IMG/VR virus record: IMGVR_UViG_3300022602_000025
Reading direction: 5' to 3' (one strand)
Origin: a virus
Lineage: Duplodnaviria > Caudoviricetes
Length of the DNA: 64,000 nt
The notes under the pieces were generated by a model that was given only the letters and a program-made list of their open reading frames with translations, did not search any database and was not told the DNA's origin. Positions 118-64,000 of the stretch are shown here, piece by piece (the first letter of the stretch is position 1; each line of letters starts with the position of its first letter). The position numbers and the translations under genes are program-made.

Positions 118-123
118 TAAATA
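118..123 (+). promoter_or_regulatory. Late promoter core TAAATA upstream of tail sheath (SD-led gene)
   Basis: TAAATA at 118-123, GGGGAG SD before ATG 158; resembles T4 late promoter TATAAATA. Confidence 0.6.
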
Positions 124-157
124 CTTCAACAAAACCATATTTGGGGAGATGTCTTAA

Positions 158-3100
158 ATGGCCAACACATTACAATCACCAGGCGTACAAGTTTCGATTA
201 TCGACGAAAGCTTCTACACACCTGCAGCACCAGGTACAGTACCTTTAATTTTTGTTGCTTCTGCAGCTAACAAAACGAATCCATCAGGAGTAACAGCACC
301 AGGAACAGTTCCAAGTGCCGCTGGTACAGTATACACAATTACAAGTCAACGTGACTTGACAGATACTTTTGGTGTACCACAATTTATTACAGACGCTAGT
401 GGAAATCCAGTTCACGGTAGCGAATTAAACGAATACGGTCTACAAGCTGCATATAGCTTGTTAGGCGTAAGCAGTCAAGCATACGTTGTACGTGCAGACT
501 TAGATTTAGCAAGTTTAACAGCTGAAGCTAGTGCACCTACAGGCGCTCCTAAAGACGGTAGCTACTGGTTTGATACAGGTAGCACAACTTATGGTATTTT
601 TGAATGGAACTCATCAACAGGTGCGTTTGCTAACAAAACTCCACTAGTAATCGATAATAACAATTATACAATTACTACTGTAAGCGGTGCTGGCACACAA
701 CCAAAACCAAGTTTTGGTACTGTAGGTTCTTATGCTATTGTTACAGATACAATGGCAGACATGCAAAACGCTGTATGGTTTAAAAATTCAGACGGTAACT
801 GGGTTGAAGTAGGTTCATTAGGCGAAGAAAACTTTGCAAGTAACTCATATCAAGATACATTTGTTTCTACAGTATGGTCTACAAGCTGGCCAGCTTTGAC
901 TAGTGCTGTTACAACAGGCACACAAAGTGGTGGTAATATAACACTAAACGGTCGTCAAGTTACAATTCCATCAGGAACAGTTGCTACTCTTGTAAGCACA
1001 ATCAACGACAATTATCACACAGTAGGTATTGGTGCTAAACTTAACGGCAACACAGTTGAATTCTTTGTAGATGCAACAGCAAATCCAGGTACAGGTGGCG
1101 GTGCAGTAGGTCAAATGGTCCTATCAGCTGACTCATCAATTTTAACAGCATTAGGTATTAGCAATGGTACTTACTCATCACCTGCAGTGTTTGTTGGTCC
1201 ACATACACAATATCCTAATTTCTCAGACAATCCATCAGGTTCTGTTTATGTTAAAACAACAAGTCCAAATGGTGGTGCAAATTGGGCTGTTAAGAAATTT
1301 AATGCAACTACAGGCGCATTTGGTCTAGTACCTGCTCCAATTTATAGTAACAAAGCAAACGCTACTTACAATCTAGATAAGATTGGTGGCGGTGCAAACA
1401 TTCCAGTCGGCACATTGTTTATTGAAAGCAACTATGACCACGGTGATGGTTACAATTCAACACTAACAAATAAATGCCGTCCAATTTTAGCAGAATTTGC
1501 TATCCAACGCCGTGTAGCAGTTGCTCCAACAACTATTACTAGCACAGATAATTCAGGTACAGTTTCAAATTCAACTGTTACTGTCGCTGTAAGCGTTCCA
1601 GGACAAGCTGCATTCTCAACAGGCACAGCACTTACAATTACAGGTGGTACAGACGCATTAGTTCAAGCAATTAACGCTTCTTCAATACCTAACCTAAGTG
1701 CGGTAACTAACGCAGACGGTTCTATTAGCATTGTTCATGCAACTGGCGGCGATATTGCGTTTAAAGATCCATCAAACGTACTATACAGCCTAGGATTTAC
1801 AGCAGGCACAACAGCTAACTTCTATACAGCAGGTGACTTTGAGCCAAACAAATTTACACAGTTTGCTTCAAATTGGGCACCTCTAAGTTACACAGCAAGT
1901 TCTATTGCACCAAGCAATACACCTGCAGACGGTCAACTATGGTATGATGCTATCACTGATCAAATCGACATTCTTTATCATAACGGTCAAGAGTGGACAG
2001 GTTACGGTGTAGCGTTCCCAAGCACAGATCCAAATGGTCCAATCGTAAGTGCTACAGCACCTACAACACAAAGCGACGGTGTAACAGCAGTTGTTAACGG
2101 CGATATTTGGGTAAGCACAGCGGTTGCTAACTTAGAAGAATACGGTCAACAGATTTATGTTTACAATGGCAACACATTGTCATGGGTACTACAAGATCCT
2201 ACAGATCACACAAGTCCAAATGGTTGGATCTTTGCAGATGCACGTTGGGCTACAAGTGGCCAAGCTGTACTAGCATCAAGCATTAGCGATCTACGTGCAA
2301 GCAACTACGTAGACCCAGATGCACCTGATCCTGCAGAATATCCACGTGGTACACGCCTATGGAACTTACGCCGTTCAGGTTTCAACATCAAGAAATATGT
2401 TAAAGGTTATATCGATATTAATTCTAACAACGGATTTAATATTCGTGTACCTAATGATCCAATGAATGGTTCAAATGATACAACACCATATAACGCAGAC
2501 CGTTGGGTTTCAGTAAGCCCTAACGATGCTAAAGGTGTAGGTACATTTGGTCGTCATGCACAAAGAGCATTTGTTGTTAAATCATTAAAAGCTCTAATTG
2601 ACAGCAACCAAAGAGTTCGTGATACAGATACACTAGTGTTCAACTTAATTGCATGTCCTGGTTATCCAGAGACTATTGCAAATATGGTTGGCCTGAATGC
2701 TGATCGTGCTCAAACAGCGTTTGTTGTAGGCGATACACCATTCCGCTTACAGCCAACAGGCACAGCACTAAAAGCATACGGTACAAACAGTAACGGTTCT
2801 TTAGACAACGATGAAAACGGTCTATTAAGCCACGATGATTACATGGCTGTTTGGTATCCAAGTGGTTACACAAATGACTTGTCAGGCAACTACATTGTTG
2901 TTCCACCAAGCCATATGATGTTACGCACTATTGCTGAAAGCGATCAGAAGAGCTATCCATGGTTTGCACCAGCAGGTATCCGCCGTGGTGTAATTGATAA
3001 CGCTACTTCAGTTGGTTATATTGATGCAACAGGTGAATTCCAATCAACAGCATTACCACAAAGTATTCGTGATGTAATGGCACAAAACGGTGCTATTAAC

Positions 3101-3508
3101 CCAATCGCTAATATTACAGGTGCTGGTATCGTTGCGTTTGGTCAATATACTCGCGCAAGTGCAGCAAGCTCATTAGATCGTATTAACGTAGCACGTTTAG
3201 TAGCTTATCTACGTCGTCAACTAGATGTATTGGCTCGTCCATACTTGTTTGAACCAAATGATAAGATTACACGTAACGAGATCAAGAATGCAGTTCAAAG
3301 CCTATTGTTAGAATTAGTAGGACAACGTGCATTGTATGACTTCATCGTAGTTTGTGATGAGTCTAACAATACACCAGATCGTATTGATCGTTCAGAACTA
3401 TGGGTAGACGTTGCTATTGAGCCTGTTAAGGCTGTAGAGTTCATCTACATACCAGTGCGTTTAGTTAACACTGGCTCTATTGCAGCTGGAACTTACACTC
3501 TAGCGTAA
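158..3508 (+). CDS. Contractile tail sheath protein (T4 gp18-like)
   Basis: N-term SPGVQVSIID; C-term sheath motifs WFAPAG.RRG, LDRINVARL, FEPND..TR, CDESNNTPDRID..L.VD..IEPVKAVEFI; 1116 aa. Confidence 0.95.
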   Translation: MANTLQSPGVQVSIIDESFYTPAAPGTVPLIFVASAANKTNPSGVTAPGTVPSAAGTVYTITSQRDLTDTFGVPQFITDASGNPVHGSELNEYGLQAAYSLLGVSSQAYVVRADLDLASLTAEASAPTGAPKDGSYWFDTGSTTYGIFEWNSSTGAFANKTPLVIDNNNYTITTVSGAGTQPKPSFGTVGSYAIVTDTMADMQNAVWFKNSDGNWVEVGSLGEENFASNSYQDTFVSTVWSTSWPALTSAVTTGTQSGGNITLNGRQVTIPSGTVATLVSTINDNYHTVGIGAKLNGNTVEFFVDATANPGTGGGAVGQMVLSADSSILTALGISNGTYSSPAVFVGPHTQYPNFSDNPSGSVYVKTTSPNGGANWAVKKFNATTGAFGLVPAPIYSNKANATYNLDKIGGGANIPVGTLFIESNYDHGDGYNSTLTNKCRPILAEFAIQRRVAVAPTTITSTDNSGTVSNSTVTVAVSVPGQAAFSTGTALTITGGTDALVQAINASSIPNLSAVTNADGSISIVHATGGDIAFKDPSNVLYSLGFTAGTTANFYTAGDFEPNKFTQFASNWAPLSYTASSIAPSNTPADGQLWYDAITDQIDILYHNGQEWTGYGVAFPSTDPNGPIVSATAPTTQSDGVTAVVNGDIWVSTAVANLEEYGQQIYVYNGNTLSWVLQDPTDHTSPNGWIFADARWATSGQAVLASSISDLRASNYVDPDAPDPAEYPRGTRLWNLRRSGFNIKKYVKGYIDINSNNGFNIRVPNDPMNGSNDTTPYNADRWVSVSPNDAKGVGTFGRHAQRAFVVKSLKALIDSNQRVRDTDTLVFNLIACPGYPETIANMVGLNADRAQTAFVVGDTPFRLQPTGTALKAYGTNSNGSLDNDENGLLSHDDYMAVWYPSGYTNDLSGNYIVVPPSHMMLRTIAESDQKSYPWFAPAGIRRGVIDNATSVGYIDATGEFQSTALPQSIRDVMAQNGAINPIANITGAGIVAFGQYTRASAASSLDRINVARLVAYLRRQLDVLARPYLFEPNDKITRNEIKNAVQSLLLELVGQRALYDFIVVCDESNNTPDRIDRSELWVDVAIEPVKAVEFIYIPVRLVNTGSIAAGTYTLA

Positions 3509-3513: not shown

Positions 3514-3519
3514 TAAATA
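3514..3519 (+). promoter_or_regulatory. Late promoter core TAAATA upstream of tail tube (SD-led gene)
   Basis: TAAATA then AGGAG SD, ATG 3540. Confidence 0.6.
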
Positions 3520-3539
3520 TATAGGACAAGGAGCATAAT

Positions 3540-4166
3540 ATGCCAGTAGCAAGTTTAAGTAAATTGACAGTACCATTACCAGCAGGACAGAGCGCATCAA
3601 ACCAAGGTTTGTTGATGCCAAAACTGCAATATCGCTTTAGAGTGACACTTCAGAACTTTGGTGTAACATCACCAACAACTGAAATCACTAAGCAGGTAAT
3701 GAACGTAACTCGTCCAGAAGTTAGTTTTGAAGCCATGGAACTACATGTTTATAACAGCAAGATCAAATATGCTGGTAAACATAGCTGGGCTGACATTACT
3801 CTTACAGTACGTGATGATGTTACTGGTGCTGTTCAACAATTAGTAGGCGAACAAGTTCAGAAACAATTTGACTTCTTTGAACAAGCATCTGCAGCGTCTG
3901 GTGTTGATTACAAGTTTACAACTGTAATTGAAATCCTAGACGGTGGTAACGGTGCATTTGAACCAACAACATTAGAATCATTTGAATTAGAAGGTTGTTA
4001 CGTAAACAAAGTTGTTTATCAAGGTGCTGATTACAGTAAGAGCGATCCTTTAGATATCGCCCTAACTATTAGCTATGATAATGCAATCCAATTGAACGCA
4101 TCAGGCAACCCATTTGGTATTGGTGCAAACGTTGGTCGTTCACTACGTACATTAGCAACAGGTTAA
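3540..4166 (+). CDS. Tail tube protein (T4 gp19-like)
   Basis: Follows sheath; YRFRV, GK..W.DITLT.RDD, F.LEGCY...V.Y...DY, ISYDNA pattern. Confidence 0.8.
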   Translation: MPVASLSKLTVPLPAGQSASNQGLLMPKLQYRFRVTLQNFGVTSPTTEITKQVMNVTRPEVSFEAMELHVYNSKIKYAGKHSWADITLTVRDDVTGAVQQLVGEQVQKQFDFFEQASAASGVDYKFTTVIEILDGGNGAFEPTTLESFELEGCYVNKVVYQGADYSKSDPLDIALTISYDNAIQLNASGNPFGIGANVGRSLRTLATG

Positions 4167-4217: not shown

Positions 4218-4233
4218 ACGGCTAAATATTATC

Positions 4234-5580
4234 ATGCCATCACTAGGTTCCTATTTACAACCCGTCTTAGGCGGGGATACAAGTTTAAAAGATTACGCAC
4301 ACGCCAGTAATCTATACCGCACGGGTAAATCTAATATACCATTTGCACTTGCTCCTAAAGCAGGGTGGATATATTATGTGGTTTTTAATTTTAACCCAGA
4401 TGCGGTTGCAGCCGCTGAAGGACCTGCTGCCGCAGCGGCAGCGTCTGGTAGTTTATTAGGTAGTGTAGCATCAGCATTAGGTGGACCTATCGCTAGTTTA
4501 ATTGGTGGTAATACTACTTCAAAGGGACTGTATTCAGATCCACAGGCGAAGTCAATAGTAGGTATGTTAGTTAAAAATGTTGACTTACCTAAATTTCAAA
4601 TCCAGACGGAAGTTGTAAATCAATACAATAGAAAAACTGTTATACAAAAAGGTATAACATATAATCCAGTTAATTTTACATTCCATGATGATCAGTACAA
4701 TGTAATACACAACATGTGGACTGATTATTACAAATATTATTTTGCAGATTCAAACTACGGTGGAACTGGTCCTATTGGAACTAACCAAGACGGTACTCCC
4801 TTCCAATTTGCAAATAACAAATACACTCCAATTAATTCAAAGAATACTCCAACAGCATATGGTTTAAATTCTCCTAAATTAGTAAATGACAGCCGTAGTC
4901 CTTTTAAGAGATTTTCATTTTTTGAAAACATTATTGTTTATCAAATGAATCAAAAAATGTTTACCAGTTTCCAATTAGTCAATCCTGTTATCGCAGGTTG
5001 GGAACATGATAGAATGGATCAAACACAGGGCAACAAATTAGTTGAAAGCAAGATGACTATCAACTACGAAGCGGTTATCTATGGATCAGGTAAAGTTAAA
5101 AAAGATACTCCTGCAGGGTTCGCTACGTTTGATTACGATACAAGTCCAAGCCCATTAAGTATCGCAGGTGGCGGTAACTCAAGTATATTTGGCCCAGGCG
5201 GTATTGTTAGTGGAGCTGAAAGTGTGTTCGGTGATGTGTCAAATATCGCTAACGGAACAGCAAGTCCATTGAATGTATTAGGCGCCGCGATTAGCACAGC
5301 TAACTTAGTAAGAAATGTTGGTAATATTTCTAAAGACAGTTTAAGAGCAGAAGGTTACAGCATTTTAACAAGTACCCTACAGAACGTTGCTAGGGGTGGA
5401 CTAAATGGTCTGGGTCTAAATCTTGGACTACAAAAAGGTAAAAATACACTAGCAACTGGAGAATATGTTGGAACACCGGTAGCCGTAACACCGCCAGCAA
5501 CTCCAGCGACACCAGCAGGCGGAGCCGGACCAGCAGCCGCCGCAGCTAATGCAGCCGCAAATGCAGCCGCAGGCAAATAA
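4234..5580 (+). CDS. Tail tube-like / baseplate-tube junction protein (gp54/gp48-like)
   Basis: VKNVDLPKFQIQTEVVNQYNRK...ITYNPVNFTFHDD tube-fold pattern; TAAATA-N5-ATG. Confidence 0.55.
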   Translation: MPSLGSYLQPVLGGDTSLKDYAHASNLYRTGKSNIPFALAPKAGWIYYVVFNFNPDAVAAAEGPAAAAAASGSLLGSVASALGGPIASLIGGNTTSKGLYSDPQAKSIVGMLVKNVDLPKFQIQTEVVNQYNRKTVIQKGITYNPVNFTFHDDQYNVIHNMWTDYYKYYFADSNYGGTGPIGTNQDGTPFQFANNKYTPINSKNTPTAYGLNSPKLVNDSRSPFKRFSFFENIIVYQMNQKMFTSFQLVNPVIAGWEHDRMDQTQGNKLVESKMTINYEAVIYGSGKVKKDTPAGFATFDYDTSPSPLSIAGGGNSSIFGPGGIVSGAESVFGDVSNIANGTASPLNVLGAAISTANLVRNVGNISKDSLRAEGYSILTSTLQNVARGGLNGLGLNLGLQKGKNTLATGEYVGTPVAVTPPATPATPAGGAGPAAAAANAAANAAAGK

Positions 5581-6370: not shown

Positions 6371-6810
6371 GTTTAAAGTTTGCTCAAGGTGTATATGAAG
6401 TTAAAAACCCTGAGAAATATGTAGGACTAGGAAATCCTAGATACCGTAGCTCTTGGGAACTTGCCGTGATGAAAATGCTAGACGAAAATGATGGCATACA
6501 AAACTGGGCAAGTGAATCTGTCAAGATACCCTACCGTGATCCACTGACAGGAAAGCAAACAGTTTATGTACCTGATTTCCTTGTGGTGTACATTGATAAA
6601 GCAAAAAAGAAACATGCTGAATTATGGGAAATAAAACCTCGTAATCAAACCACATTAGAATCTGTAGGTAAGAATCCTTATAATCAAGGACAGTATGTAC
6701 GCAACATGGCCAAGTGGGAAGTAGCACGTATTTGGTGTAAGAAAAACGGGCTTCAGTTTCGTGTTATAACTGAAGATCAGATATTCCATATGGGTGGTAA
6801 AAGACGTTAA
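6367..6810 (+). CDS. Head completion nuclease (T4 gp4-like, TnsA-N PD-(D/E)xK)
   Basis: KY.G......YRSSWE, W.SE...IPY, Y.PDF, EIKP, N.AKW..A..WC. Confidence 0.85.
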   Translation: MSLKFAQGVYEVKNPEKYVGLGNPRYRSSWELAVMKMLDENDGIQNWASESVKIPYRDPLTGKQTVYVPDFLVVYIDKAKKKHAELWEIKPRNQTTLESVGKNPYNQGQYVRNMAKWEVARIWCKKNGLQFRVITEDQIFHMGGKRR

Positions 6811-6818
6811 ATAATACT

Positions 6819-7301
6819 ATGACAAAAAAGCTAGAAGAACTGTTAAATTTACCAGAAAGCGTGCCTGAGCCGGAATTGATTCCTGTTCCTAAAGAAGACA
6901 CAAAAACAGCCATTGTAAACCTGCAACATACTCTTGAAGAATTTGACAAGATTAGTTCAGCATTACCGCAGGTAAAAGGATTAGGCGATATGAGCGATGC
7001 AGAGCTTGATAGCCTTGCTAAAAAAGCTGAAGATGCCTTTGATGATCTAATGGACTTAGGTATGAACGTAGAAGCTAGATACGGCAGCAGAATGTTTGAA
7101 GTTGCGGCCAACATGCTAAACGCCGCAGTAACCGCGAAAACCAACAAAATCGATAAGAAATTAAAGATGGTTGAGTTGCAGTTAAAGAAACTAGCTATAG
7201 ATAAAAAGAACAACGAAAACGAGGACCCTGTAGAGGGCAAAGGTTACATCATTACTGACCGTAATAGCCTCCTTGAAAAACTTAAAAATGTTAATAAATA
7301 A
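6819..7301 (+). CDS. Putative small terminase subunit (gp16-like) or hypothetical
   Basis: Helical/coiled-coil, RMFEVAANML resembles gp16 RAYEV motif; upstream of terL; TAAATA-N5-ATG. Confidence 0.4.
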   Translation: MTKKLEELLNLPESVPEPELIPVPKEDTKTAIVNLQHTLEEFDKISSALPQVKGLGDMSDAELDSLAKKAEDAFDDLMDLGMNVEARYGSRMFEVAANMLNAAVTAKTNKIDKKLKMVELQLKKLAIDKKNNENEDPVEGKGYIITDRNSLLEKLKNVNK

Positions 7302-7318
7302 TATACCAGGAAACTAAT

Positions 7319-7933
7319 ATGAAGTCATTTACAGAATACCTAACAGAAAGCAAAAGAACCTATACTTTTAAAGTTAAGGTTGCTGGCGAATTAACTACCG
7401 AACAAGAAGGTTCTATGAGAACTTTATTGGATAAATTTAAGGTTGTAGATTTCGTAAAAACTGGAGTAACTCCAGTCCAAGCATTACCTTTAGATTTTCC
7501 AAGAATCCAAAATTCACAAGTAAGTATCTATGAAGTCGCACTAGACTATCCTGTTACAAGTTCCGAACTAACAAACTATTTAGGCAACGGTTTACGAATC
7601 AACGAACAAAACATTGTTGTTCGCCGTCCAGGTGAACCATCAGAACAGTATCAAGAGCCAGGCGAGAAACGTGAAGGCGCACTACTAAATGACCCAGACT
7701 ACAAAGAAGCAGGTAGCCCTAAATTTGAAGATTACTATGGTGACAAATACAATGTTAGTCTTATAAAGACATTGAATGACGACCTTAAAGCACAAAATAA
7801 AGCACGTGGCGAACAAATTCCAGCAGCGAAAGCAGATGACATTTTAAAAAATCCAGGTGCTACATCAAACGATTTACCACAAAACAACAAGAGTCCAATT
7901 AAACAAACGGACTATGATCCAAGGAAAAAATAA
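7319..7933 (+). CDS. Putative internal head protein (CTS-like N-terminus)
   Basis: Starts MKSFTEYLTE, similar to T4 capsid-targeting sequence MKTYQEFIAE; TAAATA at 7295-7300. Confidence 0.5.
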   Translation: MKSFTEYLTESKRTYTFKVKVAGELTTEQEGSMRTLLDKFKVVDFVKTGVTPVQALPLDFPRIQNSQVSIYEVALDYPVTSSELTNYLGNGLRINEQNIVVRRPGEPSEQYQEPGEKREGALLNDPDYKEAGSPKFEDYYGDKYNVSLIKTLNDDLKAQNKARGEQIPAAKADDILKNPGATSNDLPQNNKSPIKQTDYDPRKK

Positions 7934-8736: not shown

Positions 8737-8750
8737 CATTAAATAAAAGT

Positions 8751-10328
8751 ATGGCAAAATCATTAGACGGCGTATTAGTAAAAACCGCCCATAAAAAAGA
8801 AAGATTTACAGAACAGGACGTCCTTGACATCCAAGGGTGTATGAGCGATCCTCATTATTTCCTAGATCGTTTCTTTCATATCCAACATCCAACAAAGGGT
8901 AAACTTCTTTACAAACCTTTTGAATATCAAAAACGATTAATTGACAGTTATCACGACCATCGTTTTAACGTAAACTTGTTACCACGTCAAACTGGTAAAA
9001 CTACAACAGCTGCAGGATATCTGCTGTGGTACGCTATGTTTGTTCCAGACAGCACGATTCTAATTGCCGCACACAAATACACAGGCGCACAGGAAATTAT
9101 GAACCGTATTCGTTATGCTTACGAATTGTGCCCTAATCATATACGTTGCGGAGTTACTAGCTATAACAAACAAAGTATAGAATTTGACAACGGCTCACGT
9201 ATTGTAGCGCAGACAACTACAGAAACAACAGGTCGTGGTATGTCATTATCACTACTATACTGTGACGAGTTTGCGTTCGTACCGCCCAACATCGCCACTG
9301 AATTCTGGACTTCAATTTCGCCTACATTAGCAACTGGTGGTAAGGCAATTATTACATCAACGCCAAACTCAGACGAAGACCAATTTGCTCTAATATGGAA
9401 CGAAGCTAACAAACGAGAAGATGAGTACGGAAATCTTCAAGAAGTAGGACGCAACGGATTCTTTCCGTTTAAGGCACATTGGAGAGAACATCCAGATCGT
9501 AACGATCAATGGGCCGCAGAAGAAAAAGGTCGTATTGGTGAAGAGCGGTTCCGTCGTGAACACGAGTGCGAATTCTTAATCTTTGACGAAACACTGATCA
9601 ACAGTATCAGCTTGTCAGATATGGAAGGAATAGAGCCTATAATGAAAATGGGCCAGGTCCGCTGGTACAAAAAAGTTAATCCTGATTGTACATACATCAT
9701 AAGTCTAGACCCTAGTTTAGGTACAGGTGGCGACTATGCAGGACTTGAAGTATTTGAATTACCCACATTTGAACAGGTAGCAGAGTGGCACCATAATACT
9801 ACCCGTGTACAAGAACAGGTGCGAATAATGCGAGATATCGCTAAGTTTATCGATGACGAATGTAATAAGGAAGATAAAAATTCTAACATATATTACTCCG
9901 TTGAAAACAACGCCCTAGGTGAAGGTGCTTTAGTTGCTATTAACGAATTAGGCGAAGAATCCTTTCCAGGTCTGTTTTTAAGTGAACCTATTAAGAAAGG
10001 GCATGTACGCAGATTCCGCAAAGGATTTAACACTACTAGCAAGAGCAAAATCGCTATTTGTGCAAAGCTAAAACAGTTAATTGAAAATCGAGTCTTAAAA
10101 ATCTATTCTAAGCCCTTAATAAGCCAGTTGAAAGCATACGTAGCCAAGGGGTTAGGTTTTGAGGCAAAAGTAGGCGAACATGACGACTTAGTGGCGTCAT
10201 TATTGCTGAATTTACGCATGATTATGCTGTTACAAGACTGGGATCCTAGTGTATACGAAAAAATGCACGAACACGTAACAGAAGACCTATTATTACCGAT
10301 GCCTATCTACATAGGCGCATCAATATAA
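8751..10328 (+). CDS. terL: Large terminase subunit (T4 gp17-like)
   Basis: Walker A PRQTGKTT, Walker B LLYCDEFAFV, RNase H-like SLDPSLG..GDY and HDDLV; TAAATA-N5-ATG. Confidence 0.95.
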   Translation: MAKSLDGVLVKTAHKKERFTEQDVLDIQGCMSDPHYFLDRFFHIQHPTKGKLLYKPFEYQKRLIDSYHDHRFNVNLLPRQTGKTTTAAGYLLWYAMFVPDSTILIAAHKYTGAQEIMNRIRYAYELCPNHIRCGVTSYNKQSIEFDNGSRIVAQTTTETTGRGMSLSLLYCDEFAFVPPNIATEFWTSISPTLATGGKAIITSTPNSDEDQFALIWNEANKREDEYGNLQEVGRNGFFPFKAHWREHPDRNDQWAAEEKGRIGEERFRREHECEFLIFDETLINSISLSDMEGIEPIMKMGQVRWYKKVNPDCTYIISLDPSLGTGGDYAGLEVFELPTFEQVAEWHHNTTRVQEQVRIMRDIAKFIDDECNKEDKNSNIYYSVENNALGEGALVAINELGEESFPGLFLSEPIKKGHVRRFRKGFNTTSKSKIAICAKLKQLIENRVLKIYSKPLISQLKAYVAKGLGFEAKVGEHDDLVASLLLNLRMIMLLQDWDPSVYEKMHEHVTEDLLLPMPIYIGASI

Positions 10329-10336
10329 ATATACAA

Positions 10337-12994
10337 ATGAAACCAATTGAAATTATTGCCAGCGATTTATTCGACAAAGTACGCAGTCGTTTTACCAACT
10401 TACAAATGGGTGACGAGGGCGGTGCTGTTACAGTAACCCCTGAAGATGCTAGATTTTTTGACTTTGACTTCGTTATTGAGGGCAATAATTTAGGCCGCGT
10501 TAGTATCAGTATTAACGAAACAGGCAATTTAAAGATTTATTACAGTCAGGGCATTACAGAAGCATCTGACAGTATTTCACAATCAATGTGGTATGATTTC
10601 TTACGTGAAATGCGTTTCTTTGCTAAACGCAGACTGTTAAGATTTGATACTAGAGATATAACCAAAGGTAACTTGGACAAGACAGATTTCCAGTACCTTG
10701 CACAGAATGGAAACAAGGATCCCAATATGAACGAATCAGCCATGTACGGAAGTTCTAAAACTTCACATAGAAAACTAGAAGACACTGATCTTATTATACG
10801 CCACTCAGAAGCAATTGATCCAACAAAGCCAGGCGCCCGTAGCCGTAAAATTAAGAACTTGTTTATTCAAAATTCTGAAGGCGAGCGTTTTAAATTTCCA
10901 TTCATTTATTTGCCTGGTGCCCGTGCTATGCAACGTCATATTGCTAACGGTGGTGTTCCACACGATGATGCAGGTAAACACATTATTAAAACTTGTGAAG
11001 AAATTGCCAAGTTAGGCGAGTTCCACAAGAAAGTAAAATACAGTACACTAAACGATAATGCACATGCTATCATTGAACGTGCTATTGATAAACTAAAAAA
11101 ATTACGCCATCACTGTGAGTGCATGAGCAAGCAAGGTTATTACGAGCAATGGAAAGAAGCGTTCCATCCAGATGAAGATAGCATTACAGAATTAGATGAT
11201 GCTACTATGGAAAGCTATCGTGATACATTTACACAAGAAAAGTTTGACGAAGCATTACAAGACATGTTCCCACTGATCCATCGTATCATGCAAGAAGCAG
11301 GTATAGTTGATTTAGAAGATTATGTAGGTGAAGATGTTAGTGGTCCAGCAGATGAGGAAGATGATCACGATCGTGGTTACAACGCATTTGAAACTTTTGA
11401 AGGTTGGGCAGATGCTATTGTTGAAAATACATTAGAGCCAGAAACAGTTACTCAGTTAAGCGCATTAATGACACAAGGTCTACCAGAGGGTGGGCAAGGT
11501 GTTGATGCGTACATTCAATCATTAAATGCTATGGGCATCGATGATGATTCACTAATGGATGCGTTAGAAAAGATCAATCAAATGAATCCTAACGCTGATG
11601 ATCAAACAATTAGATCAGTTATTGCAACTTGGTTGGAAGGAGAAGATCCACAAGCGGCTCAATCTATCCTATCACAAGCTCAGCCACAACAACAAGCACA
11701 AGCTGAACCTGCAGAGTCATTTGATATCGGTATGGGACAAGCTAATATGGGCGAAGATGCAGATCAATATATTGCATGTGTTGTTGACTTTGATCGTAGC
11801 GGACAACCTAAAGTTGCCCGTACAAAACCAGTTAGCAAAGAACGTGCTGAAGAAATTATTGCAGGTGCAAAAACTAAAAACACATTTACAAATCCTCCGT
11901 TCATGACAATCTATCCAGCAAGCGAAGGCAAACTAGACGGAGAAACAATCATGAAAAAATTCCCAGACATGAGCAAAGAAGATTCAGCGGCTATGGAAGA
12001 AACAATGAAGAATAAAGATGTTGCTGATAAGAGCTACTTAAAAACAGCAGGCAAAAAACAAGGTGTAGTAGGTAAGACTATCGACACAATGAAGCAAGCT
12101 GGTAAGTGGTTAGCAGGCAAAGGTGGCCCAGGTAAAGAAGGCCCAACATATGAAGGTTACTACCTAGGTCCAGAAGATCTTCCAGATTGGACTAAGGATG
12201 CTGTACATCGTGTTGCCGCAGGTAAAGTAAAAGATTGGACAGAATTATATGCTGAACTAATCAGCGATTTAGGCATCGAAGGCGACAAAGCAGAACGCAT
12301 CGCTCGTAGAATATACGGCCATGATTCACTTGCAAAATACAAAGTAAAAGCACAAGGCGATATGGAAAAAGATATCCCAAGCGACTCTGATAGCAGTGAC
12401 GACGATGCAGAGTTTTTAAGCAAGATGCGTAGTCAAGCACGTTCTGGTAGTATCAAATCAAACGACTTTGGTGCTGAAAAAGATGAAGATAGCATTGATC
12501 CAGACACAAGTGATGATGAGAAATTAATTGAACCAGAGGGTCCAAAACAAGCTAGCAAGGAAGATATTGCTAAAGCTGTTATTGGTTTCTTTGATAAAGA
12601 ACACGGCACATGGACTAAAGGTCGTCCTGGTATCGTAGCATCAGTAACACGTGAGTTTGGTGAAGAAGCAGGCGAACTAGCTAAACACTTAATCATCGCA
12701 CTAAGTAAAAAATATCCAATGCGTGATGAGCCAGAAACAGATGAGCCAGAAGTAGAATCTCAAATGGAATCAATTCGCAAGTTAGCAGGACTACCTGCAC
12801 TAACAGAAGCAGAAAAGAAAAAATGGGTCAAGGATGCTGTTAAGGGCGTTAAGAAAGGCGCACTAAGCAAGCAAGAAGGTAAAAAGAAAGGCGAGAAGTT
12901 TTCCAAAAGCGAACTAAAAGGTTTGAAAAAATCAGGTACACCGTTGGAAAAGAAACGTGCTAACTTTGCACTAAACATCCAAAAGAAAAAATAA
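10337..12994 (+). CDS. Large acidic multi-domain protein, putative internal virion protein
   Basis: 885 aa; TATAAATA-N5-ATG; acidic blocks, IRKLAGL motif, Lys-rich C-terminal module. Confidence 0.55.
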   Translation: MKPIEIIASDLFDKVRSRFTNLQMGDEGGAVTVTPEDARFFDFDFVIEGNNLGRVSISINETGNLKIYYSQGITEASDSISQSMWYDFLREMRFFAKRRLLRFDTRDITKGNLDKTDFQYLAQNGNKDPNMNESAMYGSSKTSHRKLEDTDLIIRHSEAIDPTKPGARSRKIKNLFIQNSEGERFKFPFIYLPGARAMQRHIANGGVPHDDAGKHIIKTCEEIAKLGEFHKKVKYSTLNDNAHAIIERAIDKLKKLRHHCECMSKQGYYEQWKEAFHPDEDSITELDDATMESYRDTFTQEKFDEALQDMFPLIHRIMQEAGIVDLEDYVGEDVSGPADEEDDHDRGYNAFETFEGWADAIVENTLEPETVTQLSALMTQGLPEGGQGVDAYIQSLNAMGIDDDSLMDALEKINQMNPNADDQTIRSVIATWLEGEDPQAAQSILSQAQPQQQAQAEPAESFDIGMGQANMGEDADQYIACVVDFDRSGQPKVARTKPVSKERAEEIIAGAKTKNTFTNPPFMTIYPASEGKLDGETIMKKFPDMSKEDSAAMEETMKNKDVADKSYLKTAGKKQGVVGKTIDTMKQAGKWLAGKGGPGKEGPTYEGYYLGPEDLPDWTKDAVHRVAAGKVKDWTELYAELISDLGIEGDKAERIARRIYGHDSLAKYKVKAQGDMEKDIPSDSDSSDDDAEFLSKMRSQARSGSIKSNDFGAEKDEDSIDPDTSDDEKLIEPEGPKQASKEDIAKAVIGFFDKEHGTWTKGRPGIVASVTREFGEEAGELAKHLIIALSKKYPMRDEPETDEPEVESQMESIRKLAGLPALTEAEKKKWVKDAVKGVKKGALSKQEGKKKGEKFSKSELKGLKKSGTPLEKKRANFALNIQKKK

Positions 12995-23054: not shown

Positions 23055-23073
23055 TATCTAATAAATACGTATT

Positions 23074-39028: not shown

Positions 39029-39032
39029 CCCC

Positions 39033-40263: not shown

Positions 40264-40282
40264 TATACTATATATTATACAC

Positions 40283-42015: not shown

Positions 42016-42023
42016 ATATCTGT

Positions 42024-42281: not shown

Positions 42282-42379
42282 CTTTGTTTGTATATCAAAT
42301 ATACTAGAGCTAGTTCTGCTGCGCCTAGTATCAATAAGCTAATCCACATTACGATTCTCACGCGAGTTTCTGAGTTCAT
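42278..42379 (-). CDS. Small membrane peptide (33 aa)
   Basis: Hand-translated MNSETRVRIVMWISLLILGAAELALVYLIYKQS; TATATA-N5-ATG; shares TTAA stop with + gene. Confidence 0.5.
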   Translation of the reverse strand: MNSETRVRIVMWISLLILGAAELALVYLIYKQS

Positions 42380-42659
42380 ACTAGTATATAGCTCTTTTGC
42401 CTGCTGAGGGCAAAATTTTGCGCTCTGCGCTGCCACTTCGTGGGAAATCTTTGTTGGACTCTCGGCTCTGAGGTTTTACCATTAAATAGGCATATGACTC
42501 GTTCAATCAAGTGTTATGCTTATTATCCCGTGCGGTTGACATCGGGGGCTTGTGTATGTGATTGTGTTTATTGGATCGTGGGACTGGATCAGCATTGGGT
42601 CGCTACTCATCATACACAGCTACTATCAGAACGGGAATATGTTCTGCACCTGCTGACTG

Positions 42660-42923
42660 TTACTGTATAAGTGGACGGTCGGGGTCGTCTGAACCAATAG
42701 CTGGGCGTGGGGGAGTTGGTGCAGGTGCTACTTCAAAGGCTGCGATACGACTCTTATACGCTTCTATGTTCTTAGTCACGCGAGCTAGGGCACGTTCTAT
42801 GTCTGCGATGCGTCTAGGATTGGGTACAACTTCGCCCTGTTGTTCTTTTAAGTAGCGAGTCAACTTCATCTGCTCAAACTCTAGCATCTTGATATGACCA
42901 CGGATTTTGTTTAAGTTATACAT
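42660..42923 (-). CDS. Hypothetical coiled-coil protein with Pro-rich tail
   Basis: 87 aa; TAAATA-N5-ATG. Confidence 0.7.
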   Translation of the reverse strand: MYNLNKIRGHIKMLEFEQMKLTRYLKEQQGEVVPNPRRIADIERALARVTKNIEAYKSRIAAFEVAPAPTPPRPAIGSDDPDRPLIQ

Positions 42924-43012
42924 ATGACTATTTAGGTCGAGTCAGCAGTTAGGTCTGTGGTTCTGGTTCTTAGATAATTAAGTGTACAGATATTTTACAT
43001 TAAAGGAATCCA

Positions 43013-44132: not shown

Positions 44133-44565
44133 ACTGTAGCCACTTATCTAAAAGCCAACTGCTAGAATTAGCTTTTGTAGTACCCCCAACACCAAACTCA
44201 AATCTTAGCCTAGGATCCACTAGGGTCATTTCTGGCACATTGTCTGCACCACGATCGCCCCCGTTGGCAAATATGATCTGATCGTTAGGGTATAAGGCTA
44301 GCACGTTGCGTATGGCTTCTATGGCTGTGTCATCGTTGTCATTGAATAGGATAACTCCATCTACAGCTCTAAGGTTTTCTAAGATTATCACACGCTCCGG
44401 GATGGGCAAGAATGCGGCACCCTTTTTACGAGTTAACCACGCATCTGAATTGACACCTACTATTAGTCTATCACCCAGGGCCCTAGCAGAGTTTAGTAAC
44501 GCAATATGGCCCGAATGTATAGGGTCAAAGCCGCCTGTTACTAGAACTGTAGTTGATGTGTGCAT
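44116..44565 (-). CDS. Cytidylyltransferase-like (TagD/RfaE domain II)
   Basis: VTGGFDPIHSGHI (HIGH-type), LIVGVNSD, ER...L..L..VD.V, FANGGDR, NSSS; TAAATA-N5-ATG. Confidence 0.88.
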   Translation of the reverse strand: MHTSTTVLVTGGFDPIHSGHIALLNSARALGDRLIVGVNSDAWLTRKKGAAFLPIPERVIILENLRAVDGVILFNDNDDTAIEAIRNVLALYPNDQIIFANGGDRGADNVPEMTLVDPRLRFEFGVGGTTKANSSSWLLDKWLQSRPHS

Positions 44566-44622
44566 GTGCGTATTTAAAGTCAGAACTGGCCCTAGTAAAA
44601 TTTGTGGCTGATATATACTAAT

Positions 44623-45402
44623 ATGACCGAAAGAATACTAATAATGGGTTTACCAGGTGCAGGTAAAACTACCCTAGCAAAAGCACTAGCAGAGAAAATA
44701 GACGCCGTACAGTTCAATGCAGATGATGTTCGTAAACATTACAACGATTGGGATTTCAGTTATGAAGGACGCATACGTCAAAGTAAACGTATGCGTGATC
44801 TAGCAGATGAAAGTGGTGATAGATTCGTAATCTGTGATTTTGTTGCGCCCTTAGTGGAAATGCGTAATAACTTTAAAGCTGATTGGACTATCTGGGTAGA
44901 CACTATCCGTGAAAGCAGATACGCTGATACTAACGCTATGTTCCAAGAGCCCGAGTACTATGACTTCCGTATCACAGAACAGGACGCTAACAAGTGGGCA
45001 GACTTTATAGCTGATCATATCCTAGACCGCCGCCGTCGCCCTACATTTGATTGGCGGAAGGAAACTGTACAGATGCTGGGCCGTTGGCAACCTTGGCATG
45101 ATGGACATCGTGCTCTATTTGAACGTGCTATCGCTAAAACAGGGCAGGTAGTAATACAGATACGTGACTGCCAAGGATGGCAAGGATCAAATCCTTTTGA
45201 AATTGAAAAAGTTAAGAGTTTTATCCGCCGTGATCTGGATCCCCTATATCAAGGACAGTATCTAATACAGGTTGTACCAAATATAGTAAACATTACCTAC
45301 GGACGTGATGTAGGATATCGTATTGAACAAGAATCATTTGATGAAGCTGTAACCCAAATCAGTGCTACTAAGATAAGACGTAGCATGGGCATTGACAAAT
45401 AA
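44623..45402 (+). CDS. APS kinase-like P-loop domain fused to HxGH nucleotidyltransferase domain
   Basis: ILIMGLPGAGKTT, NAD.VR, DFS.EGR.RQ, DFVAP; C-terminal GRWQPWHDGH...ISAT.IR. Confidence 0.8.
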   Translation: MTERILIMGLPGAGKTTLAKALAEKIDAVQFNADDVRKHYNDWDFSYEGRIRQSKRMRDLADESGDRFVICDFVAPLVEMRNNFKADWTIWVDTIRESRYADTNAMFQEPEYYDFRITEQDANKWADFIADHILDRRRRPTFDWRKETVQMLGRWQPWHDGHRALFERAIAKTGQVVIQIRDCQGWQGSNPFEIEKVKSFIRRDLDPLYQGQYLIQVVPNIVNITYGRDVGYRIEQESFDEAVTQISATKIRRSMGIDK

Positions 45403-45562: not shown

Positions 45563-46261
45563 ATGTCTATAATACGCAAAGCAGTTTGTGCGCTAGTAGT
45601 ATTATCGGTTCTGGCTTTCCAAAGTGTCAGTCATGCCGAGACCCCGCAAGTGACAGAAGAGGGTCAACCCAATCTAGCTGGGTATGTAGTAGCAGATGCT
45701 AGAGATAGGATTGGATCGTTCGTAACTGCGATTTCAACTCCCGTAGTCAATATGAAAGAGTTACAATGCCTAGCCCGTAACATATTCTTCGAAGCGGCCA
45801 ATGAGCCGGAAGAGGGTAAGGTAGCAGTAGGCCTAGTTACACTGAACCGTGTCCAAGATGGACGTTTCGGTCGTTCAGTATGTAACGTGGTCGACCAAAA
45901 GACGATCTTTAATGTTCCCAAACATATTGTCGTGGAAAAGCGTCAGTTTTTCCGTACAGTTGAGGAAACTCAAACTGTCTACGTCAATCGTGCTGTGTGT
46001 CAATTCTCATGGCGCTGTGTGTTTGTCAAGACTCCAAAAGGAGAAGACGAACGTTGGGTAGAAAGTCAACAAATTGCTCGAGAGTTATTGTCTAGTGACG
46101 ATACTTACAGTGATTGGCGCAACAAGTATGACGGTGCATTGTACTTTCATGCTACGAATGTCAGACCGCCCTGGGCTCATCAAAAGACAGCCATTGGACG
46201 TGTCGGAGGACATTGGTTTTATCAAGACAAAGAAGCAACACAACGAGTTGTCTATAGATAA
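45563..46261 (+). CDS. Cell wall hydrolase, SleB/Hydrolase_2 family (copy 2)
   Basis: Signal peptide; CLARNIFFEAANEPEEGKVAVG.VTLNRV, CQFSW, GALYFHA..V.PPW, VGGHWFY; AGGAGG SD. Confidence 0.9.
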   Translation: MSIIRKAVCALVVLSVLAFQSVSHAETPQVTEEGQPNLAGYVVADARDRIGSFVTAISTPVVNMKELQCLARNIFFEAANEPEEGKVAVGLVTLNRVQDGRFGRSVCNVVDQKTIFNVPKHIVVEKRQFFRTVEETQTVYVNRAVCQFSWRCVFVKTPKGEDERWVESQQIARELLSSDDTYSDWRNKYDGALYFHATNVRPPWAHQKTAIGRVGGHWFYQDKEATQRVVYR

Positions 46262-46269
46262 ATATTGTT

Positions 46270-46485
46270 ATGAGAGCCCATGAATTTATAACAGAAAAAA
46301 CCAGCGCAGCACTTTGCCATTCAGGTCGCCGTCTAGGACGTAGCGATTATGCTAGTTGTGTGAGCCAAGGGCTCCGAGCTCACACTTCTAAAGGCAAAGG
46401 TCATACAGATGGCAAAGGCCACTACTTAAAAGGCAAGAAGAAAAAGTCTACTAAGTACGGTGGCGATGTTCCAGATTACAGCTAA
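46270..46485 (+). CDS. Small basic protein with CTS-like N-terminus
   Basis: MRAHEFITE...; K/G/H-rich; TAAATA-N5-ATG. Confidence 0.7.
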   Translation: MRAHEFITEKTSAALCHSGRRLGRSDYASCVSQGLRAHTSKGKGHTDGKGHYLKGKKKKSTKYGGDVPDYS

Positions 46486-46512
46486 TCAACAGGTGCGTAT
46501 TTTAAATACGCT

Positions 46513-47805
46513 ATGTTCGATAAACTACCCTGGCTAACCACAGCCAAACCAATAACATTTCAAACAACAGCAACTAATAGAGAACAAAGTCTCTGTGTAG
46601 TCCCATGGATACATCTTAACATCGAACCTGATGGTAGAATGACTCCTTGCTGTCTTACCAGTACTAAGGTTAAGAATCTAGGCAACATCAACGAAACCTC
46701 TATAGAAGAAGTGTGGAACAGTGAAGTTCTACGTACAATGCGTACACAAATGTTAAACGGAAAGCGTCCAGAAATTTGTAGCCGTTGTTGGAAGCAAGAA
46801 GAAGTCACCGGAGAAAGCAGCAGGATCCATCGCAATAGAGAATTTGGGCATGTTGTTGAACGTATTCCAGATATGACTGAGCCTGATGGTACAGTCAAAG
46901 ACATGAAGTTGTTGTATTGGGACTTCCGCTTTAGCAATATATGTAACCTTAAATGTCGTTCATGTGGCCCGCAATATAGTAGTGCATGGAAACCAGATGC
47001 TGAAGCATTGGGTTGGATCAAACCTAATGAGATAGGTAAAGTTATTCAAGTAGACTCTGTAAGTGATAAAACTAACTTTGACTTTATAGTGGAACAATCG
47101 AAGTATGTTGAACGCATTTACTTTGCTGGAGGTGAGCCGTTGCTCATGGATGAGCATTGGCAAATACTAGACTTACTTGAACAACAGGATCGATTTGATG
47201 TTACAATTACATATAACACTAATTGTAGTAGCCTTACGCACAAAGGTAAGAATGTATTAGACTACTGGCGCAAGTGGAAGAAAGGACATATTGAAATATG
47301 GCCTAGCATTGATGAGATTGGACCACGTGCTGAACTTATTCGTAGTGGGTCCGATTGGAATAAGATTGAGCGTAATCTTATCGCAATGAGTGAATTAGAT
47401 AACTTAATCGTTCGCCCTAATATTACAGTTGGTGCATTGAACGCACATCGTATTCCGGAGATTGTCGAGCATCTGACTAGTATTGGAGTTATTAACTCTA
47501 AGCAACACTATCACAATTGGTACATTAATCTTATTTTAGAACCTGATAACTTGCATGTTAGTATTTGGAATGAAACATTTAGAATGCAAACTATTGATAA
47601 GTTAACAGCATGGGCCGCCGAATACGAAAAGAAGTATCGTACTATGCGTATCTTACCTAAGTTAAATCAAATTATACATGAGCTTCGCCAACCTACTAAT
47701 CAAGGTGCTAAGAATCGCTTTTTGCAACTGACTAAACAAATGGATGTGCTACGCCAAGAAGATACGTATGCTACAATTCCAGAATTAGTTGAAGCACTTA
47801 AATGA
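46513..47805 (+). CDS. Radical SAM protein with N-terminal Twitch/SPASM domain
   Basis: CVVPW...DG...PCC...CSRC; CNLKCRSC; FAGGEP; TAAATA-N4-ATG. Confidence 0.92.
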   Translation: MFDKLPWLTTAKPITFQTTATNREQSLCVVPWIHLNIEPDGRMTPCCLTSTKVKNLGNINETSIEEVWNSEVLRTMRTQMLNGKRPEICSRCWKQEEVTGESSRIHRNREFGHVVERIPDMTEPDGTVKDMKLLYWDFRFSNICNLKCRSCGPQYSSAWKPDAEALGWIKPNEIGKVIQVDSVSDKTNFDFIVEQSKYVERIYFAGGEPLLMDEHWQILDLLEQQDRFDVTITYNTNCSSLTHKGKNVLDYWRKWKKGHIEIWPSIDEIGPRAELIRSGSDWNKIERNLIAMSELDNLIVRPNITVGALNAHRIPEIVEHLTSIGVINSKQHYHNWYINLILEPDNLHVSIWNETFRMQTIDKLTAWAAEYEKKYRTMRILPKLNQIIHELRQPTNQGAKNRFLQLTKQMDVLRQEDTYATIPELVEALK

Positions 47806-58389: not shown

Positions 58390-59236
58390 TTTCTAAATAC
58401 CTTATTAACGGACTTACTCCTACAGGCTGTCCATCACGTAGTGCTAGATAGATACTGTTAGTTGGCATGAGATTAAAGTCATAACAAACTTTATAGTAAC
58501 TACGGCTGTGCGTTGTCCATAGGTAATCTACAGGAAACTTTCTAATAAAGTGTAACCCAATCATTGCAGGTGCCCGTAGATTCATACGAAAGTCGTTCAT
58601 GATAGTAATTGAATCAGCTTCAGTATCTCTAGTCCAGCGCAGCCCTATACGATTCCAGCCAAGCCCAAGACCTTTGGAAAGACTAATTCCAAACGAACGT
58701 ATAGCTGGGTGATTGAAATCAAACTCAATATCACGGCAACAGCTAATCCAAGCCCCATCAATGTGTACAGCAATCTGTTTATCCAAACACTCATCTAATA
58801 TATCCTTCATTTGTATATGCGGCGCTCCTGTGCTTGGGAACGGCATAGCAATTATTAATGGTAATCCTTTACGCAAGTATCCTGGGATACTATAAACTAA
58901 ATTTGGATTTAGCCTGCTGTGATATCTATAATCACCTTTTAGTGTTTGTACAGGACCTTTCATATACAAACTATCAATAAACTGTGTACACCCGTTGATA
59001 ATGTCTACACGATTGAATTGATCAAATCCAGATATAGTATTAATTTTACTATCTTTTAACCAATCTGTCATTTCTTTTTTAAAATTGGTGTAGACTGTGT
59101 CTGTAATATCACGATCCATTTTACCAGAAAGTACATCTTGTATTGTTGACTCGATAAGATTGTCAGAAAGTGGTTGAGGTCTTTCAACTTCTAGATATTC
59201 TGCAGAGTATGATGGAGCGATCTTATAGCGTGTCAT
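58373..59236 (-). CDS. PLP-dependent transferase-like protein
   Basis: P.PSTG, VHIDGAW (PLP Asp), SLSKGLG (Schiff-base Lys), RIG; start at 59236 by TAAATA-N5-ATG. Confidence 0.65.
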   Translation of the reverse strand: MTRYKIAPSYSAEYLEVERPQPLSDNLIESTIQDVLSGKMDRDITDTVYTNFKKEMTDWLKDSKINTISGFDQFNRVDIINGCTQFIDSLYMKGPVQTLKGDYRYHSRLNPNLVYSIPGYLRKGLPLIIAMPFPSTGAPHIQMKDILDECLDKQIAVHIDGAWISCCRDIEFDFNHPAIRSFGISLSKGLGLGWNRIGLRWTRDTEADSITIMNDFRMNLRAPAMIGLHFIRKFPVDYLWTTHSRSYYKVCYDFNLMPTNSIYLALRDGQPVGVSPLIRYLENADVS

Positions 59237-59281
59237 GCGAATATTTATGGTCATTATAGTAGCATATAAATATTCGCATGA
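59233..59281. repeat. Perfect 16-bp inverted repeat forming two divergent late promoter plus ATG units
   Basis: TCATGCGAATATTTAT (59233-59248) and ATAAATATTCGCATGA (59266-59281), 17-nt spacer. Confidence 0.9.
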
Positions 59282-62942: not shown

Positions 62943-63627
62943 AGATCTCTTTGGCACGCTCGATAAACTCTTTAGGATAGTCTGCACTAAAACTATTAAA
63001 GGCCAGCATCTGTATATCTTTAATAGGTGCAGGCTTATCCCAATCTATGCCCATAGCATCAGAATGTTTCTTAAGTTCTATCCTGCGGCCTTCGCTAATA
63101 TGACTAAGGAAACTGTTTACTGTAATAGGTGCTTCTTTATCATCATAGGTAAAGAAGTAGTTGATGCTCTTTAACTTTCCGTCTACAATAAAATAACTGT
63201 TAGGATGTAGACTAATCTTATACCATCCCAAGTCTTTGTGTGCTTGTAAGATAGCCAGCATCTGTTCTTGCCAATCTGGTAATACCGCATCAAAGTCGCA
63301 AGCTCTGTTCAAGCTACGTTGCCATAGATCAGGTCCATCTATTTCTAAATAGATCTTACGTTCTGGAACATTTACTTCGCGGATCTTAGGAACCATATCT
63401 GGATTGTGCCATGCCATGTTAGATAAGAAGTGCATCTCACGTTGCCATTTATCTTTCATTAGTGCAGGATCTACTTGGTTCATACCTTTGTGATATTCGC
63501 TATCATTATTAAACCATTGACAAAATACTGTTTTGTCTTTGTTTACCAAACTGGTATAAACTAAGTTGTTTCTCCAGGGCTCGCCCCCAGGTATTTGATT
63601 GTAGTAGTATTCAAAGTTGTCTTGCAT
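62935..63627 (-). CDS. Protein kinase-like fold protein (atypical), paralog of 53067
   Basis: WQRE, MVPKI..V, W.EQM..IL, YKISLHPN, LKSINY; TAATTA-N5-ATG. Confidence 0.55.
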   Translation of the reverse strand: MQDNFEYYYNQIPGGEPWRNNLVYTSLVNKDKTVFCQWFNNDSEYHKGMNQVDPALMKDKWQREMHFLSNMAWHNPDMVPKIREVNVPERKIYLEIDGPDLWQRSLNRACDFDAVLPDWQEQMLAILQAHKDLGWYKISLHPNSYFIVDGKLKSINYFFTYDDKEAPITVNSFLSHISEGRRIELKKHSDAMGIDWDKPAPIKDIQMLAFNSFSADYPKEFIERAKEIYV

Positions 63628-63654
63628 ACCCTTAATTATAGCATAAGTACGTGC

Positions 63655-64000
63655 ATGATACGCGGAATTGGCGGAAAGCCCTACATCAGTTTAGACGAAC
63701 ATCTTGATATACAAGGATTTGTAGATCTGCATCCAGAAATATGCAGAGGCTTTGCGTTGGCCAGAGATTATGCTAAAGAAGGCACATGGATGAAACCTGG
63801 CTTTGATTGGAAAGACGCTAGCTATACAGTCAATTGGAAACCTATCTATAAAGCTGTTGAAGAATATCTGGCATTACCTACTGAACATCCTATTCGTAAG
63901 AATGGTGATGACTTATACTTTACTGACCTAAGTGATTTTAAGAATCGCAATACATTTACCAGATATCTAAAAAGCGTACTAGGTGCAAGCGATCCTTACA
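63655..64000 (+). CDS. Hypothetical protein, truncated by window end
   Basis: TAAGTA-N5-ATG; hand-translated MIRGIGGKPYISLDEHLDIQGF... open to 64000. Confidence 0.7.
   Translation, partial: MIRGIGGKPYISLDEHLDIQGFVDLHPEICRGFALARDYAKEGTWMKPGFDWKDASYTVNWKPIYKAVEEYLALPTEHPIRKNGDDLYFTDLSDFKNRNTFTRYLKSVLGASDPY

Follow-up and report, generated by a model that had tools for sequence, protein, structure and literature searches.

The subject of this work is the layout of late promoters in a window of 64,000 nucleotides (nt), the whole stretch of IMG/VR virus record IMGVR_UViG_3300022602_000025 that was analysed, which comes from an uncultured virus of fresh water, a jumbo myovirus within the T4 superfamily. 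Our explanation for this layout, which we consider likely, is that late promoters of the gp55 type are fused to start codons and would thereby yield leaderless mRNAs. In this scheme, the hexamer TAAATA would serve a T4-type late promoter as its -10-like core. Host RNA polymerase would read it together with a phage sigma factor of the gp55 family, and in 15-16 genes of the window it would act from a position 5 nt (in rare cases 4 or 6 nt) ahead of the ATG. Because the core lies 4-6 nt ahead of the ATG, transcription would start on the A of the start codon or no more than 1-2 bases away from it, and each late unit would have its first gene translated from a 5'-AUG mRNA without a Shine-Dalgarno sequence (SD). 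The genes of the sheath and the tube, which are the most abundant tail proteins, would use the same core followed by an SD-bearing leader of 15-30 nt.

Counted against shuffled sequence, the distances from TAAATA to the start codon show a sharp excess at a spacer of five nucleotides (N5; other spacers are written likewise), with 12 copies of TAAATA-N5-ATG in the window versus 1.24 expected, and 12 or more in 0 of 100 dinucleotide shuffles. Spacers N4 (two copies, 1.33 expected) and N6 (one copy, 1.66 expected) stay at the level of chance in the window. The 14 sites listed in the original prediction were all found with the spacings given for them, 11 at N5, those of genes 27189 and 46513 at N4 and that of gene 23074 at N6 (genes are named here by the position of their start codon), and the list grew by one N5 site (motif at 42483, ATG at 42494) that opens an open reading frame (ORF) of 58 codons. 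Both strands of the window together hold 30 TAAATA, of which 16 stand ahead of an ORF-opening ATG at N4-6, while three more precede the sheath (N34), tube (N20) and 7319 (N18) genes, all with the longer SD leaders that had been claimed for them. When hexamers were tallied by their distance from ORF starts, blind to the motif, TAAATA at spacer 5 ranked first in the window (8/93), with the SD words below it. Moreover, when about 20 start-linked copies are removed (16 fused, three leadered and one within a sigma70-like promoter), 10 TAAATA are left versus 48.8 expected under a fourth-order Markov model (z = -5.6), which would make it the most depleted hexamer of the window; two variants of it, TATATA and TAATTA, also rank among its most depleted A/T hexamers. 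The five one-mismatch forms of the motif that had been proposed do all exist, as TAATTA-N6 at 41815, TATATA-N5 at 42379(-) and 44623, TAAGTA-N5 at 63655 and TAATTA-N5 at 63627(-), the last of which is probably not a late site because its TAATTA falls within a sigma70-like TGCTATAAT-N7-ATG.

The N5 peak reaches beyond the window. Megablast of the window versus phage records gave zero matches, and its closest cultured relatives are the Pseudomonas phage PA5oct, with a large terminase (TerL) 54% identical to that of the window in syntenic surroundings, Atu_ph07 and the Rak2-like phages. The stretch occurs in DNA runs from lake and freshwater metagenomes, and a TerL-based scan gave a set of 80 IMG/VR loci (TerL identity 62-83%, 1.1 Mb in total), in which many sites are orthologous to each other, so that counts and p-values overstate independence. 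Over these 80 relatives, the distance from TAAATA to ATG has a one-position peak of 186 sites at N5 above a background of ~15, with shoulders at N4 (45), N6 (23) and N7 (37), and ORFs of 60 codons or more begin at 179 of the 186 N5 sites. In a complete relative genome with terminal repeats (G001; 322,512 bp), there are 15 TAAATA-ATG at N5 versus roughly 2-7 at other spacings.

The motif is also tied to particular genes. PHROG matches place the tail sheath, two tail-tube-like genes, head closure, TerL and virion proteins at 158-13000 of the window, and SSB, UvsX, UvsY, helicases and a primase at 13-27 kb; TAAATA stands before the sheath, the tube, the tube paralogue, TerL and virion proteins. 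Among orthologues in the relatives, it is kept at N4-6 by 63/77 TerL genes, where the letters of the spacer differ freely and a hairpin with a T-run usually stops 3-4 nt before the motif. Likewise, the tube paralogue 4234 has it at N5 in 30/32 cases and gene 10337 at N4-7 in 78/80. The orthologues of gene 6819 include five at N5, 15 with a leader and 31 free of the motif, and this gene and 7319 alternate among fused, leadered and motif-free layouts across the relatives. The sheath is SD-leadered in 34/34 orthologues, and the tube is leadered in 33/45 and fused in none. TAAATA is absent at the starts of SSB in 40/50 orthologues and of UvsX in 55/58, and it is never fused there; the early array of the window is free of it as well.

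That the motif genes lack an SD, as the original prediction held, is borne out in the window by their mean SD duplex energy of +0.24 kcal/mol versus -3.7 kcal/mol for the other genes (p = 9e-6), with no SD-like match at any of them and with pairing at or below -6 kcal/mol in none of the motif genes versus 27% of the others. The translation system of the host does use SDs, since the early array of the window (28-41 kb) carries strong AGGAG SDs, and the genes downstream in the motif units have weak SDs or coupling through overlapping stop and start codons. The start codon itself is more uniform at the fused sites, being ATG at 147/149 distinct N5 sites versus 158/169 SD-led starts (p = 0.02); over the 80 relatives, the N5 spacing occurs with GTG in no case and with TTG in two. 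With respect to the calling of these starts, 13 of the 16 motif ATGs in the window have no in-frame start upstream, and no SD-led in-frame start was found within 40 codons downstream of the motif ATGs, except a weak one in gene 23074 (codon 29, -6.5 kcal/mol). In most relatives, the N-termini of TerL, 6819 and 10337 align no later than residue 3, which confirms the start codons of these three genes; alignments of the tube paralogue 4234 to relatives mostly begin later than that. Chance, base composition or mis-called starts could in principle produce such a pattern from a short motif made of A and T only in a genome of 40% GC. Given the shuffles, a peak one spacing wide, the conservation among orthologues, the general lack of SD-led alternative starts apart from the weak one in 23074 and the three genes whose N-termini align from residue 1-3, we give this explanation practically no weight.

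The position of the motif agrees with what is known for T4, where the late promoter TATAAATA spans -13 to -6 (PMC1524935). TAAATA fills -11 to -6, and therefore five more bases bring the A of the ATG to +1. Over the fused sites TAAATA is invariant, -12 and -13 are weakly A/G and the upstream TA of the T4 core is not conserved; in this regard, the late core of Aeh1 is CTAAATA, and in other T4-like phages the requirement for the first T is looser (PMC1524935). Upstream of TAAATA we find no conserved -35 or other element, apart from the T-runs of terminators. The base at -1 is a pyrimidine at 144/149 distinct N5 sites (T in 116, C in 28) versus 89/169 AGGAG-led starts, a difference with p = 4e-21, and bacterial RNA polymerase usually prefers to initiate with a pyrimidine at -1 and a purine at +1. 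In the window, terminators adjoin the motif at 4234 and 8751, and the ATGs of the divergent pairs 27162(-)/27189(+) and 59236(-)/59278(+) are 26 and 41 nt apart, with a TAAATA of its own for each gene. As far as the layout of the DNA can tell, this geometry excludes space for another promoter or a leader at several sites. Every sequence test run agrees with the proposal that +1 falls on or next to the start codon, for which we infer, rather than observe, the 5' ends of the transcripts.

A candidate reader of these promoters is present in the relatives, as a gp55-family sigma factor of ~300 amino acids (aa) is encoded by G001 (at 215,364-216,152, minus strand), G002 and PA5oct. These proteins match phrog_12791 with an E value of about 1e-85 and the T4 gp55 family, phrog_234, with values of 1e-18 to 1e-25, T4 gp55 itself having 185 aa. 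The family has at least 8000 environmental homologues at E below 1e-20, and the sigma of this clade is ~80% identical among hundreds of environmental proteins; inspection by eye of its acidic C-terminus revealed no obvious T4-like clamp-binding peptide. A nuclease like RegB, which would cut SDs, was considered as the reason for leaderless mRNAs and dropped; a search with T4 RegB in G001, G002 and PA5oct gave nothing usable, which is not evidence of absence.

A second promoter class shows a comparable geometry. The early genes of G001 (~120,600-135,600, plus strand) are preceded by TTGACA-N17-TATAAT-N6-ATG, with 13 sites at N6 above a background of 1-2, and thus appear from their sequence to be leaderless, unlike the early genes of the window with their leaders and strong SDs. 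The N6 spacer of these G001 promoters is often ACACAC, several of them read ATGACGACGCAA and they have no SD. TATAAT at N6 and TAAATA at N5 each stand at their textbook distance from the ATG, something that a transcription signal predicts and a ribosome-binding signal does not. In the window, the SSB (gp32-like) gene has a sigma70-like TTGACA..TACAAT promoter at 14265-14300 with a chance TAAATA inside its spacer, and the TTG start listed for this gene at 14331 may be mis-called.

These data bear on whether TAAATA could act in the RNA, on longer transcripts, as a ribosome-binding or enhancer element other than an SD, for example an A/U-rich site for S1 or the target of a phage factor. The spacing of 5 nt is like that from an SD to its ATG, and the motif takes the place of the SD. 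Nevertheless, we regard this possibility as very improbable: TAAATA lies 18-34 nt ahead of the SD-led sheath, tube and 7319 starts, where it cannot bind the ribosome, and terminators that stop 3-4 nt upstream would leave little upstream RNA to carry the motif. Moreover, most of the ~10 TAAATA of the window that are not linked to starts are antisense to the local gene (read by eye), which fits a DNA signal; the pyrimidine at -1 and the TATAAT-N6-ATG class with its -35 boxes are signatures of transcription; and the hexamer equals the late core of the T4 family, with gp55 present in relatives.

Another way to read the fused sites would keep the promoter as real and take the layout mainly as genome economy, the proteins of the first genes being made chiefly from long read-through transcripts by coupling or reinitiation, with a minor share from leaderless ones. 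In its favour, an upstream TAA stop is reused at 4/16 sites, 8 nt before the ATG, operon-internal genes are often without an SD and overlap their neighbour, and 7319 and 6819 change freely between fused and leadered among relatives. We think it unlikely, as TerL and the tube paralogue have a terminator ahead of the motif in most relatives, the divergent pairs offer no upstream gene for coupling, and starts with ATG only and a pyrimidine at -1 point to selection on a 5'-AUG transcript. Overlap with the stop codon as the whole explanation was ruled out, given that it covers those four sites only.

Several observations weigh against gp55-type promoters fused to start codons. The four fused sites just mentioned overlap an upstream TAA stop, and termination-reinitiation could therefore add to their translation. 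A core of 6 bp is weak when taken alone, and TAAATA is not depleted in G001. PA5oct, the nearest cultured relative, was without the N5 peak in a scan of its genome (three sites). No gp55 was found in a search that covered the window part of the genome, and gp45 (phrog_223) and T4 gp33 were unmatched in G001, G002 and PA5oct, an empty result that is not evidence of absence; the authors of the CBB study likewise detected no homologues of gp33 or gp45 (PMC5259590). As for RNA, four lake RNA-library runs gave identical contigs over the sheath, tube and SSB genes at a depth of 1-5, with DNA carry-over possible; such low-depth metatranscriptome contigs are the only RNA data and cannot show starts, so that the placement of +1 is a prediction from DNA sequence. 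Several motif genes (radical SAM, cytidylyltransferase, AlgH-like), moreover, fall outside the classical late genes; the late timing of these and of the kinase motif gene, like the +1 position and the quantitative role of the layout, is what we infer.

With regard to that role, the original prediction also proposed that leaderless and SD-led mRNAs tune stoichiometry at the level of translation. The two layouts do correlate with the kind of protein, sheath and tube being SD-led in those relatives where their starts were located and TerL, 4234 and 10337 fused, but 7319 and 6819 toggle between layouts, and what stands is a correlation. We tentatively entertain, as possible though rather doubtful, a broader view in which this freshwater T4-related jumbo clade would have a two-tier late translation, with fused leaderless mRNAs for enzymes and minor virion parts and SD-led mRNAs for bulk tail proteins, conserved per gene, and possibly a late shift of the translation apparatus toward leaderless initiation, as proposed for YS40. 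If such a programme is true, the distance from promoter to ATG would be an evolvable dial for the dosage and timing of proteins.

Table. Positions of fused, leadered and variant TAAATA sites and of the early gene array in the window
Feature	Position	Strand	Remarks
TAAATA-N5-ATG, tail-tube paralogue gene (4234-5580)	4223..4236	+	terminator hairpin 4189-4212 and T-run closely upstream
TAAATA-N5-ATG, gene 6819-7301	6808..6821	+	TAA doubles as stop of head-closure gene 6367-6810
TAAATA-N5-ATG, large terminase gene (8751-10328)	8740..8753	+	terminator 8709-8732 closely upstream
TAAATA-N5-ATG, 885-aa virion protein gene 10337	10326..10339	+	TAA doubles as TerL stop
TAAATA-N6-ATG, virion structural gene 23074-24174	23062..23076	+	
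TAAATA-N5-ATG, AlgH-like gene (26602-27162)	27160..27173	-	divergent pair, ATGs 26 nt apart
TAAATA-N4-ATG, gene 27189-27884	27179..27191	+	divergent partner of AlgH-like gene
TAAATA-N5-ATG, 85-aa gene	42013..42026	+	TAA doubles as stop of ORF 41815-42015
TAAATA-N5-ATG, 58-codon ORF	42483..42496	+	
TAAATA-N5-ATG, 87-aa gene (42660-42923)	42921..42934	-	
TAAATA-N5-ATG, cytidylyltransferase-like gene (44116-44565)	44563..44576	-	
TAAATA-N5-ATG, 71-aa gene	46259..46272	+	TAA doubles as stop of 45563-46261
TAAATA-N4-ATG, first gene of radical SAM/SPASM operon 46513-54840	46503..46515	+	
TAAATA-N5-ATG, head of operon 59236 to 54949	59234..59247	-	14-nt perfect inverted copy of 59267 site
TAAATA-N5-ATG, head of radical SAM operon 59278-62417	59267..59280	+	divergent ATGs 41 nt apart
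Sheath, leadered promoter	118..160	+	TAAATA 118-123, predicted ~29-nt leader with GGGGAG, ATG 158
Tail tube, leadered promoter	3514..3542	+	TAAATA, N20 containing AAGGAG, ATG
Gene 7319, leadered TAAATA	7295..7321	+	N18 with AGGAA
Variant TATATA-N5-ATG, 33-codon ORF	42377..42390	-	
Variant TATATA-N5-ATG, kinase-like gene (44623-45402)	44612..44625	+	
Small early gene array	28000..41200	-	TTGAC..TGCTATAAT promoters, conserved leader, strong AGGAG SD

Some regions of the window offer additional details. At 59234-59280, two inverted duplicates of 14 nt (TAAATA, an identical 5-nt spacer and ATG) are separated by 19 nt, a sequence arrangement that points to a bidirectional promoter unit, either duplicated or co-regulated, for two divergent radical SAM operons. 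The radical SAM/SPASM, cytidylyltransferase and kinase-like genes at 44116-62417 form a large block of three units headed by TAAATA-fused starts, and should the three units be late, a biosynthetic pathway would be co-expressed with the virion genes. At 63625-63657 there is a further divergent pair with its ATGs 27 nt apart, where a sigma70-like TGCTATAAT stands 7 nt ahead of the ATG of the minus gene and the plus gene has TAAGTA-N5-ATG; by its sequence, this junction may unite two fused promoters, one of the early and one of the late type. Apart from promoters, palindromic hexamers are the most under-represented words of the window, such as AAGCTT (4 versus 29 expected), ATGCAT (6 versus 30), GTGCAC (6 versus 21), GCATGC (6 versus 20) and AGCGCT (0 versus 8), a rarity that looks like restriction-site avoidance.

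If the 5' ends are as predicted, widespread uncultured giant phages would make a class of late proteins without ribosome-binding sites in hosts that read strong SDs, and the T4 model of late transcription would be extended to a layout in which promoter and start codon are fused. At a practical level, the starts and late promoters of these genomes could then be called by a simple rule; gene finders tuned to SDs will mis-call them. Outside of Thermus, Actinobacteria and archaea, these phages would offer a natural system for questions on leaderless dosage and timing, and the split between fused and leadered genes, conserved per gene, is open to direct reporter testing.

Among known systems, the closest are the late promoters of T4, which depend on gp55 (PMC1524935, PMC7892883), and those of the Rak2-like phages CBB and GAP32, for which an ATAAATA motif was predicted before structural genes together with a gp55-like gene (PMC5259590). 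The promoters described here share with them a -10-like core made of A and T only, the lack of a conserved upstream element, the association with virion and not replication genes and a gp55-family sigma in relatives. Unlike in T4, the core in the window has 6 bp, and many genes have it joined to their start codon at N5; T4 itself is without the pattern, with 10 N5 matches versus 5 for a control pattern, and the CBB paper is silent on leaderless layouts (PMC5259590). For PA5oct, the promoters reported in its paper are sigma70-like only, and the gene positioned like 23074 (structural, before primase and DnaB helicase), a match made by position, has TATAAATA-N5-ATG. In PA5oct, this layout is recorded for gp262, at 144,985.

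Leaderless transcripts are better known from other phages and hosts. According to a preprint on the Thermus phages YS40 and Lalka27a, which cites the work on YS40, most of their transcripts have the A or G of the initiator codon as their first base, and their late promoters have a -10 element of their own, TAGGGT, suggesting a phage-modified polymerase (bioRxiv 10.64898/2026.04.20.719267). In Deinococcus-Thermus hosts, the -10 is commonly next to ORFs and leaderless expression is common (PMC12340547). In contrast with those unrelated phages, the leaderless layout of the window is specific to a class of genes, the early and bulk tail genes using strong SDs. Neither the early transcripts of phiKZ nor the transcripts of AR9 are leaderless. 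The cI gene of lambda transcribed from PRM, other single genes of enterobacterial elements, and genes of Actinobacteria and mycobacteriophages are leaderless, need a 5'-AUG and have no SD, their -10 standing at a fixed short distance from the ATG and being read by the primary sigma of the host. Unlike lambda cI and its kin, the sites described here imply a phage-specific late sigma class, and their layout is systematic. GeneMarkS-2 includes a model of leaderless transcription. In poxviruses, the TAAATG initiator of the late promoter overlaps the start codon and is used by the viral polymerase, which makes poly(A) leaders by slippage. The likeness, a late core joined to the ATG, is one of analogy only, with a eukaryotic virus and no homology. 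In the literature searched, leaderless late mRNAs of the gp55 type were not reported for T4-related phages, and the layout would combine two known mechanisms in a systematic way that is conserved in one environmental clade.

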